This document shows, in pieces, positions 44,515 through 51,117 of a stretch of DNA of 64,000 nt. Position numbers and translations under genes: made by a program. The DNA lies in NCBI RefSeq assembly GCF_056746865.1, contig NZ_CM163382.1; one strand, given 5' to 3'. The notes beneath the pieces were generated by a model. That model had not been told where the DNA came from. It ran no database searches and saw nothing but the letters and a program-made list of their open reading frames with translations. Position 1 is the stretch's first letter. Each line of letters begins with the position of its first letter.

Positions 44515-45210
44515 TCAACAATCCTCAATAATCAGATATACCGCCTTCACCGGACCATGCACCCCAACCACCTTGATAAGCTCAATATCCGCCGTCGAGC
44601 TGGGTCCACTGATGATATTAATGCACGATGGCATACGCTCACCGGCCTGTGCTTTCTGATGCAGTTTTTCTGCCAGCTGCGCCACGCGCGGCAGGATGGT
44701 GCTTTTACGCAGCACGAAAATAGAGGACTCCGGCAACAGGCTCAGGGAGCGCCCGCGCTCCGGTGCGGAAAACAGCACCACGCCGCCGGACTCGGTCAGG
44801 CCATATTCGGCATACACCACGCCGACTTTCGCCTGCTCGGCCTGGGTAATATTTTCGCTACCACGCGCCGGATCCCAGACCACGGCGTTGCATTCCTGCT
44901 GCAAGCGTTCGGTGATGCCCAGCTCCACCAGCCGGCTGTCGCCGCTCAGCACCACCGGCTGCTGACCCAATTCTTCGCACAGGCGCAGTGCCGCGTCTGC
45001 GGCCTGGTCCTCGCTGGTCAGTTCGCAGCGGGCCAGCATCACTTCGCTGGCAAACTGGATAAACGCAGAGCAGCGCTGCTCGGGGCTAAGCTCGGTCAGG
45101 CGCTCGTTGGCATAGTTGTTAACCGGTGCGGCATCCGCTTGCGGTTCGAAGCGCAGCGGGCGACCCAGCGCCTGGGCGATGGTGTTTAAAAACGCGGTAC
45201 GGTTATCCAT
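44515..45210 (-). CDS. ykgG: Lactate utilization protein C (LutC/YkgG family)
   Basis: 231 aa from MDNRTAFLNTIAQALG...; start overlaps ykgF stop. Confidence 0.85.
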   Translation of the reverse strand: MDNRTAFLNTIAQALGRPLRFEPQADAAPVNNYANERLTELSPEQRCSAFIQFASEVMLARCELTSEDQAADAALRLCEELGQQPVVLSGDSRLVELGITERLQQECNAVVWDPARGSENITQAEQAKVGVVYAEYGLTESGGVVLFSAPERGRSLSLLPESSIFVLRKSTILPRVAQLAEKLHQKAQAGERMPSCINIISGPSSTADIELIKVVGVHGPVKAVYLIIEDC

Positions 45211-46630
45211 TCTTTTTCTCCTGCGCCTGATGTTTCTTAAACCAGCTGCGGAAGCTCTCGCCGTCAGCATCAGGCAGATCGCGCGCCTCCATCCAGTCAC
45301 CAATCGCGCCAACCTTGAGCGGGGTTTTGCCGCCATTGATAAACCAGCTCGCCGCATGCGCGCCCGCCATCATCCCGACTTTCCACAGCCCCGGATGGCT
45401 ATTGGCATAGGCGAACATCTTGATCGCCCGTCGCTCGGCTTTCGGCGTAATGCCCTCCTCGGCCATCACCCGGCGATGACGCAGGATCAGTTTTGACAAC
45501 GGAATACGCACCGGGCAGACGCTGTCACAAGCCGTGCACAAAGAACAGGCGTACGGCAGGTCTTTAAAATCTTTATAGCCGCCGAGCAGCGGAGAAATCA
45601 CCGCGCCGATAGGGCCGGGATAGATAGAGCCATAGCCGTGCCCGCCGATGTGGCGGTACGCCGGACAGGTGTTCATACAGGCTCCGCAGCGGATGCAGCG
45701 CAGCACATCGCGAAACTCTGAGCCCAGCACCTGCGAGCGACCGTTATCGACAATCACCAGATGGAACTCTTCCGGTCCGTCAACGTTGTCCGCATCACGC
45801 GGGCCGGTCAGCCAGGTGTTGTAGCCCGTCAGACGTGCGCCCACGGCGCTGCGCGCCAGCATGGTAATCAGCACATCCACCTCGGCAAAGGTCGGCGCGA
45901 TACGCTCCATGCCCATCACCGCAATGTGCGTTTTCGGTAGCGTGGTGCACATGCGCGCGTTGCCTTCGTTGGTCACCAGACACACCGAGCCGGTTTCCGC
46001 CACGGCAAAGTTACAGCCAGTAATACCGATTTCGGCACTGAGGAAATCCTCGCGGATCTTCTGACGAATGAACAAGGTCATAGCTTCCGGGGTTTCCGGG
46101 CCGTCGTACCCCAGACGTTCGTTCAGCACGCGGCGGATCTGGTAGCGATCTTTATGAATCGCCGGAACCACGACGTGCGAAGGCGGATCCTGATCCAACT
46201 GCAGGATATATTCCCCGAGATCGGTTTCGATCACCTGGATTCCGGCATCCTGCAACACATGGTTGACGCCGATTTCTTCGGTCACCATCGACTTGGACTT
46301 CACCACCTTCTGCGCATTTTTACTCTGCGCGACCTGCAAAATGTAGCGAGTGGCATCTTCTTTGGTTTTGGCGAAATAGACGTGTCCGCCGTTTTCCGTC
46401 ACTTTCTCGGAGAGTTGGTACAGGTAAGCGTCGAGGTTGCTCAGAACGTGATCGCGGATCTGGCTGGCACGATCGCGCCATTCTTCCCAGTGGCCTAACT
46501 CATCGACCATTTTTTGCCGATTCGCGCCGATACGCTCCTGCGCATTAGCCACGGCTTTGCGCATAATCGGATCTTCTATCTGCTGACGAATACGCAGTTT
46601 AAATTCTACATCGCTGGTTTTTATCGACAT
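45203..46630 (-). CDS. ykgF: Lactate utilization protein B, iron-sulfur (LutB/YkgF family)
   Basis: 475 aa; two 4Fe-4S motifs (CIRCGACMNTCP, CSLCTACDSVCP). Confidence 0.9.
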   Translation of the reverse strand: MSIKTSDVEFKLRIRQQIEDPIMRKAVANAQERIGANRQKMVDELGHWEEWRDRASQIRDHVLSNLDAYLYQLSEKVTENGGHVYFAKTKEDATRYILQVAQSKNAQKVVKSKSMVTEEIGVNHVLQDAGIQVIETDLGEYILQLDQDPPSHVVVPAIHKDRYQIRRVLNERLGYDGPETPEAMTLFIRQKIREDFLSAEIGITGCNFAVAETGSVCLVTNEGNARMCTTLPKTHIAVMGMERIAPTFAEVDVLITMLARSAVGARLTGYNTWLTGPRDADNVDGPEEFHLVIVDNGRSQVLGSEFRDVLRCIRCGACMNTCPAYRHIGGHGYGSIYPGPIGAVISPLLGGYKDFKDLPYACSLCTACDSVCPVRIPLSKLILRHRRVMAEEGITPKAERRAIKMFAYANSHPGLWKVGMMAGAHAASWFINGGKTPLKVGAIGDWMEARDLPDADGESFRSWFKKHQAQEKKNG

Positions 46631-46640
46631 CTCTTTCCCC

Positions 46641-49132: not shown

Positions 49133-49563
49133 GGAGGGCGGCTCTCCGCTCCTTATATCAGGGCCAGTGAAAATGGCTATAAGTTCATTTGTATGACAAA
49201 GCAGAATATTCCCTCAATCAATATCCACATGCAATACCCCATTTTATTTCTTTCGGTACCGCTCACATTTTTTAATGAAATTACCACCGCCATATAATTC
49301 ATACCTCGCCCTTTGAGGGGATGCCAAAACACTTATTTATTGCAAAGATCATCCCATACCTATTAATGATTAACTCTAATGGGTGTTGTAATATTTAGTG
49401 GTTATTCATATTTAATAAAAAAAATAACATTATTTATACAATTATTAACCTTTATAACTTTATTTCACTGAAGCGATTCAGTTAGCATTTTTTATTTTAT
49501 TATTCAGGTAGCTTCCTTCCCCATAAATATAGCTCAGTCTAAAAAAGTAAATCGGGAATTGTA

Positions 49564-51117
49564 ATGCACGAATATTTAATGTTTGCTCTGGCACTCTCTC
49601 CTTTGCTGCTGATGGTATTTTTAATACTGAAATTAAAAATGCCCATCCATTATTCCGTACTGATCTCTTTGGTATTCACCGCTGCACTATCGGCAATATT
49701 CTGGGAAATGCCCGTACAAAATTTGAAAGCCGCGATAGGCTATGGTGCACTGAAGGGACTATGGCCGATCGTAATTGTTATCCTCGGCGCTATCTTCAGT
49801 TATAACGTCATGCAGGCGACCAAAGCGCTGGATATTCTGCGCGATATTCTCGCCAGCATTAGCGAAGATAAGCGTATTCAGGTGCTGCTGATTTCATGGT
49901 GTTTTGGTGGATTTCTTGAAGCCGCTGCGGGCTATGGCACGGCGGTCGCTATTCCGATCGGTATTCTCATTGCGCTGGGATTCAACCCGTTGAAGGCGGC
50001 GATTGCTTCCCTCGTAGCAAATACCGTTCCGACCGCATTTGGCGCGGTTGGGATCCCGGTTTCTATTCTGGCAGAGCAGGTTAATCTGCCGGTTTATACC
50101 TTAGGCGGAACCATTATTTTGCAGCTCGCGCTGTTTAATATCCTGCTGCCGTTTGTGATTGTCTGCATTATTGGCGGTGGCCTGAAAGCCATTCGCGGCG
50201 TATTTCTGATCACGTTGATTTGCGGCATTTCCACGCTGATTCCGCAATATTTTGTCGCCATCCATCTTGGCGCGGAATTACCCGCTTTTGCCGGTAGCCT
50301 GGTCAGCCTGTTTGCCGTGGCGATGGTCAGTCGCCTGCGCAAAGGGAAAACCGATCCAGAGTGGCGCATTGAGGTCAGCCATACCCGCGAAACCACGCCG
50401 CGCTCGGCAAAAGTGTTGTTCCGCGTGGGCTCTATCTATCTGTTTATTTTTGTGTTTATCCTGCTGTGTTCGCCGCTGTTTCCGACAATAAAAGGCGCGG
50501 CATCCCAACTGGCTTCGGTGCTGCATTTCACGTTGGCTGACGGCAAAACGATGGCACTGAAAGTTGAATGGGTGACCACACCAGGGATGCTGATTATCTT
50601 TGCGACCATTATCGGCGGTTTTATTCAGGGAGCGTCCGCACGCGGGATGCTGGAAGTATTTATCAAAACGATTTTCCAGCTTAAAAACTCTATCGTGGCA
50701 ATTATGGCGATCGTCGCGCTGGCCACGGTGATGGATCTCAGCGGGATTATCTCCACACTGGCGCAGTCGATTGTCGATCTGACCGGCAGCTCGTACGTCT
50801 TCCTCGCCCCGGTGATTGGCGCGCTGGGCACGTTCGTTACCGGCAGCGATACCAACTCGAACATTCTGTTTGGCAAGCTGCAAACCATAGCTGCCAGCAA
50901 GTTACATATCGATCCCAACTGGCTGGCGGCGGCCAATACCTCTGGCGCTACGGGGGGCAAAATGATTTCGCCGCAAAGCATCGCCATCGCGGTTTCTGCC
51001 ACCAAAATGGACGGTCAGGCCAATCAGATCATGTCTGGCACCATGAAATACTGCTGTGCCTACATTGTGATCCTTGGCCTGAAAGTCGGTCTCTTTTATT
51101 ACTGGTTTATGGCGTAA
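49564..51117 (+). CDS. Lactate permease (LctP/LldP/GlcA family)
   Basis: 517 aa polytopic membrane protein; divergent from the dld-lutABC genes. Confidence 0.85.
   Translation: MHEYLMFALALSPLLLMVFLILKLKMPIHYSVLISLVFTAALSAIFWEMPVQNLKAAIGYGALKGLWPIVIVILGAIFSYNVMQATKALDILRDILASISEDKRIQVLLISWCFGGFLEAAAGYGTAVAIPIGILIALGFNPLKAAIASLVANTVPTAFGAVGIPVSILAEQVNLPVYTLGGTIILQLALFNILLPFVIVCIIGGGLKAIRGVFLITLICGISTLIPQYFVAIHLGAELPAFAGSLVSLFAVAMVSRLRKGKTDPEWRIEVSHTRETTPRSAKVLFRVGSIYLFIFVFILLCSPLFPTIKGAASQLASVLHFTLADGKTMALKVEWVTTPGMLIIFATIIGGFIQGASARGMLEVFIKTIFQLKNSIVAIMAIVALATVMDLSGIISTLAQSIVDLTGSSYVFLAPVIGALGTFVTGSDTNSNILFGKLQTIAASKLHIDPNWLAAANTSGATGGKMISPQSIAIAVSATKMDGQANQIMSGTMKYCCAYIVILGLKVGLFYYWFMA

Follow-up and report, generated by a model that had tools for sequence, protein, structure and literature searches.

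In Escherichia coli K-12 the genes for lactate utilisation are unlinked: ykgEFG sits between rclR and ykgH/betA with neither a permease gene nor dld beside it, and lldPRD lies at a separate place. In contrast, the stretch of DNA analysed here (64,000 nucleotides of contig NZ_CM163382.1, NCBI RefSeq assembly GCF_056746865.1; hereafter "the window") holds, at positions 44515-51117, a lactate module in which dld is followed by lutABC, the counterparts of ykgEFG, and faces a divergent gene, lctP, for a permease of the LctP family. The same gene set has been reported from the IncY plasmid pFec10 of E. coli Fec10, with an LctP that has no counterpart in K-12 or on the chromosome, a Dld that shares more than 85% identity with the core enzyme and, next to them, a second ykgEFG whose YkgE stands at 94% (PMC7984374); likened by these published values, the two clusters also agree in their identities. 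A lineage-specific island of uropathogenic E. coli of sequence type 127 (ST127) carries a lutABC operon and a lutP permease gene beside hsdMSR, dld being unmentioned (PMC9769692), and lutABC and the permease gene likewise lie next to hsdMSR in the islands of two of the related loci compared here (L001 and L097). The sites differ, pFec10 being an IncY plasmid and the ST127 island lying at tRNA-Phe, whereas the copy in the window is in an island at an ileX-type tRNA; the donor, the scar left by the deletion of dld and the regulatory boxes treated below are identified in neither paper (PMC7984374, PMC9769692). Since it is described on pFec10 and in part in ST127, and since the RefSeq annotation of all five genes is already correct, the module is already known in kind and substance; what this analysis adds is the Citrobacter donor, the exact ends of the segment, the scar and polymorphism of dld, and the homology of the promoter and YieP operator. 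Overall, we put at roughly 0.85 the probability that this is an accessory, horizontally acquired, mobile lactate-respiration module of Citrobacter origin that is regulated by its host.

Further relatives share parts of this design. The lldP-dld-II-lldEFG cluster of Shewanella oneidensis (Pinchuk et al. 2009, as related in PMC4468914) has the same functional layout, a permease with a D-lactate and a three-subunit L-lactate dehydrogenase, and Shewanella LldEFG and Dld-II are, in that account, functional L- and D-lactate dehydrogenases (PMC4468914). As far as the same source goes, however, Dld-II is related to the yeast lactate dehydrogenase dependent on flavin adenine dinucleotide (FAD) and is not homologous to the module's enzyme, which is of the Dld/PRK11183 type, and both gene orientation and regulators differ. 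Among the Enterobacterales, clusters of Kosakonia, Edwardsiella, Pectobacterium, Dickeya, Serratia, Proteus and Budviciaceae encode permeases 63-80% identical in amino acids to that of the module and LutA and LutB proteins 72-90% identical. In these, as in Mixta, Samsonia and Sutterella, the four genes lctP-lutA-lutB-lutC are co-directional, with no dld within about 8 kb, whereas the divergent layout with dld between promoter and lutA was seen only in Citrobacter and in the mobile copies. In Bacillus subtilis a regulator belongs to the described lutABC/lutP system. The lutABC genes there are homologous to those of the module and, to the extent that PMC7984374 cites the work (Chai et al. 2009), are under a GntR-family repressor, LutR, similar to the GntR/FadR logic that we propose for the module. 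The B. subtilis system is without dld, while the module is without a linked regulator, its candidate regulator YieP being encoded elsewhere.

Genes were annotated from NCBIfam profiles with curated cut-offs, precomputed Pfam matches of identical proteins, and the annotation of related loci by the Prokaryotic Genome Annotation Pipeline (PGAP); coordinates are collected in Table 1. Dld scores 1040.6 bits against NF008387 (PRK11183; cut-off 391), its residues 2-565 covering positions 4-567 of a profile of 570, and has the domains FAD_binding_4 (PF01565) and Lact-deh-memb (PF09330). LutB reaches 758.9 bits against the LutB/LldF equivalog model TIGR00273 (cut-off 444.8), has LUD, Fer4 and LutB_C domains, and shows the motifs CIRCGACMNTCP and CSLCTACDSVCP in its translation. 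The Pfam domain CCG is assigned to LutA, in whose translation two CCG motifs can be read, and LUD to LutC, which no NCBIfam model matched. The three genes are thus contiguous in the order A-B-C and encode a CCG protein, a LUD/4Fe-4S protein above the equivalog cut-off and a LUD protein, as is proper to LutABC. The permease (Lactate_perm, PF02652) scores 406 bits against the LctP subfamily model TIGR00795 (cut-off 341.15; residues 4-509 on positions 6-526 of 530) and falls below the equivalog cut-offs of both LldP (NF007740, 260.5 versus 918 bits) and GlcA (NF007249, 254.3 versus 1121 bits); it is an orthologue of neither.

The five open reading frames (ORFs) are all intact, and purifying selection on them is strong, the ratio of non-synonymous to synonymous substitution rates (dN/dS) against Citrobacter orthologues being 0.015-0.13 across the five (lutC 0.05-0.13; dld 0.05 against C. 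gillenii). None is a pseudogene, dld and the permease gene included, for which a sequence-only reading of this stretch had named that possibility as a test of its view. That reading had named dld, lutABC and a lactate permease, with dld co-oriented with lutABC and the permease gene divergent across some 430 bp of AT-rich DNA; profile matches and the ORF map agree with it on every one of these points, the divergent region (49133-49563) measuring 431 bp, with a GC content of 33.2% (52.6% in the window as a whole). Its description of dld as fused into the array was too strong, since dld and lutA are separate ORFs 74 bp apart and are better called adjacent (10 bp separate lutA from lutB, and the ends of lutB and lutC share 8 bp).

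Table 1. Positions in the window of the module's genes, predicted signals and borders
Feature	Position	Strand	Remarks
GntP-family permease gene, 3' fragment	44052-44465	+	left edge of the Citrobacter segment; truncated by ISKpn26
GC-rich hairpin	44473-44501		stem of 13 bp, loop of 3 nt; separates lutC from the convergent gntP fragment
lutC (ykgG-like)	44515-45210	-	231 aa, start chosen to match YkgG; LUD-domain subunit
lutB (ykgF-like)	45203-46630	-	475 aa; LUD and 2x[4Fe-4S] subunit
lutA (ykgE-like)	46641-47360	-	239 aa, GTG start; CCG-domain Fe-S subunit
Perfect 18-bp palindrome TTGATATCGCGATATCAA	47398-47415		dld-lutA spacer; candidate operator
dld	47435-49132	-	565 aa; quinone-dependent D-lactate dehydrogenase
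Predicted YieP-type (GntR/FadR family) operator ATTTGTATGACAAAG	49187-49201		centred 62 bp upstream of the dld ATG
Predicted dld-lutABC promoter	49206-49234	-	TTGCAT (-35), 17-bp spacer, GAATAT (-10); just upstream of the YieP box; aligned to K-12 ykgE and Citrobacter
Cra/FruR-consensus box ACTGAATCGCTTCA	49469-49482	-	near-palindrome CTGAAGCGATTCAG; centre 88 bp 5' of the lctP ATG
lctP, LctP-family lactate permease gene	49564-51117	+	517 aa
Citrobacter-derived 3' flank of lctP	51118-51541		REP-like repeats; right edge of the captured segment
IS3-family transposase fragment, C-terminal part	51547-51963	-	NF033516; right boundary; gene interrupted further right by a group II intron

When the module is set against K-12, it turns out not to be the locus with which the sequence-only reading had equated it. 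The enzymes are orthologous to native ones: LutA, LutB and LutC are 94%, 95% and 86% identical in amino acids to YkgE, YkgF and YkgG, and Dld is 86% identical to the core E. coli Dld; the promoter and YieP operator of ykgE also have homologues in the module. The permease is only 32.5% identical to K-12 LldP, and, unlike lldPRD, the module is without LldR and without an LldD of the flavin mononucleotide (FMN) type. At the nucleotide level, megablast against 5426 complete E. coli genomes found the entire 8-kb region in 97 and the dld-lctP pair in 107, about 2%; nearly all others match only the lutABC part, at about 83% identity, in genes annotated as ykgEFG. Synonymous divergence (dS) from K-12 ykgEFG is about 1.1, and the flanks are ISKpn26 with a gntP remnant (ΔgntP) on one side of lutABC and dld on the other, with no rclR or ykgH. 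Because of the nucleotide identity, the dS, the rarity among genomes and the foreign flanks, the genes in the window are a second, xenologous copy and not the native locus. The carrier genome presumably has its native ykgEFG, dld and lldPRD as well, these being present in nearly all E. coli genomes.

The source of this copy can be traced rather precisely. Positions 44052-51541 (7.5 kb) are colinear with chromosomes of Citrobacter portucalensis at 97.2-97.6% identity, and the homology stops exactly at these two positions. On the C. portucalensis chromosome CP145154.1 the order is a tnaA-like gene, a Trp/Tyr permease gene, a PfkB kinase gene, lctP on the opposite strand, dld, lutA, lutB, lutC, gntP on the opposite strand, uxuA and a gene of the mannitol-dehydrogenase family. 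There (locus L098) gntP is intact, encoding 447 amino acids, and the flanks are the native uxuA and tnaA-like genes, whereas PGAP marks the gluconate/GntP permease as incomplete in three related loci (L001, L095 and L097). Protein comparisons agree, in that the permease is 99% identical to those of C. portucalensis, C. braakii, C. youngae and C. werkmanii, and the cluster of Dld proteins at 90% identity includes chromosomal ones of C. portucalensis, C. cronae and C. freundii. Since the identity is colinear and extends to chromosomes with an intact gntP and native flanks, the module is a piece of a C. freundii-complex chromosome, probably captured between insertion sequence (IS) elements; the repeats resembling repetitive extragenic palindromic (REP) sequences 3' of lctP are consistent with a chromosomal origin. 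The bordering elements are unlike each other, with ISKpn26 (IS5 family) on the left and an IS3-family fragment on the right, where Klebsiella plasmid p69-1 has an intact ISEc52 and E. coli TW11681 has IS1, so that the like elements at both ends that define a composite transposon were not found (target-site duplications were not searched for).

Copies of the module are widespread on plasmids. At a coverage of at least 80% and about 98% identity it was found on 143 plasmids, mostly conjugative plasmids of Klebsiella pneumoniae; the 199 matching plasmids fall chiefly in Klebsiella (124), Escherichia (55) and Raoultella (11), and 122 of the 199 are typed as conjugative. On the IncFIB/IncFII plasmid p69-1 the module lies between the ars and pco operons and adjoins ISEc52. 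E. coli TW11681 shares the ISKpn26-ΔgntP junction but has it at another chromosomal site, near argF and fdeC; plasmid pPCP06102 carries a separate, IS1-flanked capture of an allele like that of C. gillenii (83-88% nucleotide identity) with a truncated dld (locus L096, 8002-9147). The alleles themselves are mosaic: between the window and the Klebsiella plasmid dS is 0.008 for dld and 0.10-0.15 for lutABC, and between the window and TW11681 the pattern is reversed, which points to recombination among Citrobacter-derived alleles. The 8-kb query is 100% identical in E. coli strain 165, from which the window diverges to the left of about position 43600; on that side the window contains a DmsA-type reductase operon, and its ISKpn26 is interrupted by an IS3-family insertion. 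No genome in the collection corresponds to the stretch over its full length.

Within the C. freundii complex the module is not uniform. Its species representatives are without dld, having lost 1.63 kb that correspond to positions 47506-49137 of the window, and the scar joins about the last 70 nucleotides of dld to an intact dld upstream region. Since other strains of the same species retain dld, its presence is polymorphic. C. gillenii (locus L009, 5741-5873) has a longer dld-lutA spacer in which a GC-rich hairpin with a run of T replaces the AT-rich palindrome, and these differences of the C. gillenii type, in the spacer and in dld, suggest that the coupling of dld to lutABC differs between Citrobacter lineages. 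Tenebrionibacter intestinalis (locus L010, 6660-8000) has lutABC and lctP divergent across a 1.3-kb gap with a YieP-like box of two mismatches, and no dld was detectable in this locus.

How the genes are transcribed can be judged from the non-coding DNA. About 70 nucleotides around the YieP box upstream of dld align with the upstream region of K-12 ykgE, where the promoter reads TTGCAT-N17-GATTAT, so that the ancestral lutABC promoter and operator would now stand upstream of dld. Because this homologue precedes dld and not lutA, because the dld-lutA spacer has neither a terminator-like site nor a stable RNA fold, and because the dld-deleted Citrobacter genomes keep the promoter joined to lutABC, a single dld-lutABC operon is the best reading. 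Its transcript likely ends at the GC-rich hairpin between lutC and the gntP fragment, which the terminator scan did not flag since it has no run of T; the same consensus scan for promoters and terminators returned nothing useful in either the spacer or the divergent region. A terminator or attenuator in the module's spacer was considered and dropped, since the RNA fold (minimum free energy -8.5 kcal/mol, z = +1.1) was no better than that of shuffled sequence, and a search of Rfam found no RNA family inside the module. The spacer does contain the perfect palindrome TTGATATCGCGATATCAA, which a pattern search found nowhere else in the window (0.01 matches expected by chance) and which is kept with at most two changes in the C. 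freundii-complex loci. The half-sites of the FNR consensus are spaced 4 bp apart. As an FNR site the palindrome was therefore rejected, its half-sites TTGAT and ATCAA being 8 bp apart and not 4, and it is not known to match any other operator.

For its control the module seems to depend on the host. A search by tblastn with K-12 LldR and YieP of the fetched loci and the window found no gene for a regulator of either type in the module or within about 8 kb of the cluster in any enterobacterial locus. It is therefore not fully self-contained, as it had been called: transport and both dehydrogenases are present, and the regulator gene is missing. The box ATTTGTATGACAAAG, however, has a single mismatch to the motif atTTGTaTGAcaAAT defined for YieP by chromatin immunoprecipitation with exonuclease treatment (ChIP-exo; PMC7642389), is the only match with up to two mismatches in the window (0.09 expected), and is homologous to an exact-motif box upstream of K-12 ykgE; its core TTTGTATGACAAA is invariant in all Citrobacter loci. 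Deletion of yieP, which is encoded elsewhere on the host chromosome and unlinked to the module, derepresses ykgEFG roughly 10-fold (PMC7642389). Boxes with at most two mismatches also adjoin lctP or lutA in Kosakonia, Proteus, Pragia, Leminorella and an Enterobacteriaceae metagenome-assembled genome, whereas none of 506 control windows had one; Edwardsiella has boxes with three mismatches at the same -45 position, and near the clusters of Pectobacterium, Dickeya, Serratia, Samsonia and Mixta no such box was found. On the lctP side, ACTGAATCGCTTCA matches all 14 positions of RSTGAAWCSNTHHW, the Cra consensus quoted in PMC5829826, and is invariant in all Citrobacter loci; it is suggestive only, since about 0.5 matches per window are expected by chance. 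The Citrobacter alignments show conserved blocks in the divergent region as a whole. With a ykgE-like promoter bearing a YieP operator, a Cra box and no regulator gene of its own, the module probably uses host regulators, YieP being indicated and perhaps Cra. In Proteus spp. (loci L033-L042, about 6680-7750) up to three YieP-like boxes lie 5' of lctP, those of P. penneri (L034) in a stretch of about 2 kb without ORFs of 90 or more amino acids; since YieP represses the small RNA (sRNA) gene rydC in E. coli, an unannotated sRNA or small gene may lie there.

The course of events that we propose is as follows. A block of the C. freundii complex comprising ΔgntP, lutCBA, dld and the opposite-strand lctP (7.5 kb) would have been captured between IS elements and would travel on conjugative plasmids of Klebsiella and E. 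coli and in E. coli genomic islands, the copy in the window sitting in one downstream of an ileX-type tRNA. Judging by family membership, LctP would import lactate; Dld, a membrane FAD enzyme 86% identical to its E. coli counterpart, would oxidise D-lactate to pyruvate and pass electrons to quinones; and LutABC, an Fe-S complex orthologous to YkgEFG/LldEFG, would convert L-lactate to pyruvate. Taken together, these predicted functions would give the host a second route for both isomers beside its own lldPRD, dld and ykgEFG, which already supply three lactate dehydrogenases. The operon dld-lutABC would be read from the ykgE-like promoter and repressed in trans by host YieP at the operator just downstream of the -10 element, while the permease gene would be read divergently from a promoter of its own with the Cra-type box upstream. 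The family assignments thus support the earlier view of the cluster as a unit for lactate uptake and oxidation. The remark that YkgEFG is poorly characterised is outdated: in E. coli MP1 the loss of ykgEFG lowers fitness only on L-lactate under anaerobic nitrate respiration, and that of dld only on D-lactate in air (PMC9701030).

Several observations weigh against parts of this account. The roles of the module copy in transport, enzyme activity and growth are argued by analogy, and, at 32.5% identity to LldP, the substrate range of the permease is read solely from family membership and gene linkage. The Cra consensus has two matches in the window against 0.52 expected by chance, and the predicted dld promoter is weak by consensus and was missed by the consensus scan. 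At least two losses of dld, by deletion in the C. freundii complex and by truncation on pPCP06102, mean that it is dispensable in some hosts. As for the operon, a separate promoter or operator for lutABC could lie within the palindrome and the 74-bp spacer, which is nearly invariant, and C. gillenii has its terminator-like hairpin between dld and lutA. One may accordingly consider that dld and lutABC are separate adjacent units, lutABC having its promoter or operator in the spacer and the palindrome as control site: spacer and palindrome are more conserved across the C. freundii complex than the flanking coding DNA, and the palindrome is highly non-random. This we consider unlikely, since the module's own spacer shows no promoter-like site, no terminator-like site and no stable fold, since it is dld and not lutA that the homologue of the ykgE promoter and YieP operator precedes, and since dld deletions leave that promoter joined to lutABC; an internal lutABC promoter in addition to read-through from the dld promoter is possible.

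The single-operon reading being preferred, the remaining alternatives concern what the module is and what it is for. That it is the native ykgEFG locus, with dld and the permease gene relocated beside it, was implicit in the sequence-only reading and would account for the closeness of LutABC to YkgEFG and for the shared promoter and YieP box; with 83% nucleotide identity, a dS of about 1.1, an occurrence in some 2% of E. coli genomes, IS elements and a Citrobacter gntP fragment where rclR and ykgH should be, and 97% colinearity with a C. portucalensis chromosome, it has next to no chance of being right and is already refuted by these comparisons. It is more difficult to dismiss the idea of a module that hitch-hikes as selectively neutral cargo and decays in E. 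coli and Klebsiella, as its functions are redundant with the core lldPRD, dld and ykgEFG, dld has been lost repeatedly, and the authors who described pFec10 call the selective force for a second ykgEFG copy undetermined (PMC7984374). Decaying cargo would not, however, be expected to keep its five ORFs intact in the window, in the contigs that have the exact Dld and a complete locus, and in those copies from E. coli and plasmids that were examined, to be retained at 80% or more of the query in 107 E. coli genomes and 143 plasmids, to show a dN/dS of 0.02-0.2 even between mobile alleles, and to conserve its cis elements, so that this explanation is improbable. It is less probable still that the module acts mainly on some other 2- or 3-hydroxy acid, such as glycolate, 3-hydroxypropionate or glycerate. 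The permease does fall below both the LldP and the GlcA cut-offs, and LctP-family carriers are said, in work ascribed to Nunez and colleagues in 2002, to move glycolate as well. The YieP regulon, moreover, was discovered through tolerance to 3-hydroxypropionate; that tolerance, however, was attributed to yohJK and not to ykgEFG (PMC7642389). Dld exceeds the D-lactate dehydrogenase cut-off by a large margin, the phenotypes of ykgEFG and dld mutants are stereospecific for lactate (PMC9701030), and the permease gene is linked to lutABC across the Enterobacterales.

Respiratory lactate oxidation gives Enterobacteriaceae a fitness advantage where lactate is abundant, as in the inflamed gut, urine and wounds (PMC9701030). 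A portable cassette that would let a host take up and oxidise both isomers, and that occurs beside metal-resistance operons on widespread conjugative plasmids of Klebsiella as well as in islands of E. coli, may therefore plausibly serve niche adaptation while spreading with resistance plasmids. YieP is an orphan FadR-type regulator with unknown ligand, whose translation is repressed by the anaerobic sRNA FnrS (PMC11340327), and this control would, in our view, fit the anaerobic phenotype of ykgEFG mutants. Sequences resembling its operator stand next to lutABC or to lctP in Escherichia, Citrobacter, Kosakonia, Tenebrionibacter, Proteus and Budviciaceae. We therefore suggest, tentatively and with more doubt than confidence, that YieP is a lactate-utilisation regulator of the Enterobacterales; that the mobile module, which keeps the operator, would plug into the YieP circuit of any enterobacterial host; and that, FnrS repressing yieP translation, lack of oxygen would derepress the module, which would then serve anaerobic respiration as a portable electron-donor cassette. 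If so, an anaerobic cassette would lie beside a DmsA/YnfE-type reductase operon in the window and beside tetrathionate reductase genes on pFec10, and the conserved operator would offer a concrete route to the ligand of YieP.

Some features of the surroundings deserve mention. Just left of the module, at 38772-41207 on the minus strand, is a gene for a molybdoenzyme of the DmsA/YnfE family (TIGR02166, 1132 bits); related genomes have a dmsABC-like operon with dmsD between two copies of ISKpn26 (in full in locus L097, 14412-19434). Tetrathionate reductase genes accompany the lactate cluster on pFec10, and electron-donor and electron-acceptor modules may be mobilised together. The transposase gene of ISKpn26 in the window (41561-43802) is split by an IS3-family insertion of 1258 bp (42348-43605), which the related loci used for comparison (L082, L085 and L095) do not have and which holds a strong Rfam match to the sRNA isrC (43415-43537, minus strand, 150 bits). 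To the right, the IS3-family element at 51547-54755 is interrupted by a group II intron whose reverse transcriptase/maturase ORF (52116-53639) is intact in the window and annotated with an internal stop in strain 165; Rfam matches there are Intron_gpII (52026-52112) and the ALIL frameshift pseudoknot (54639-54755). The sole tRNA of the window (18003-18078) has a CAT anticodon and is called tRNA-Met by ARAGORN and, in strain 165, tRNA-Ile of the ileX type by PGAP. It probably marks the attachment site of a large mosaic island that reaches past the end of the window and that, in related genomes, contains hsdMSR, Ag43 and raf/csc sugar genes together with the lactate module.

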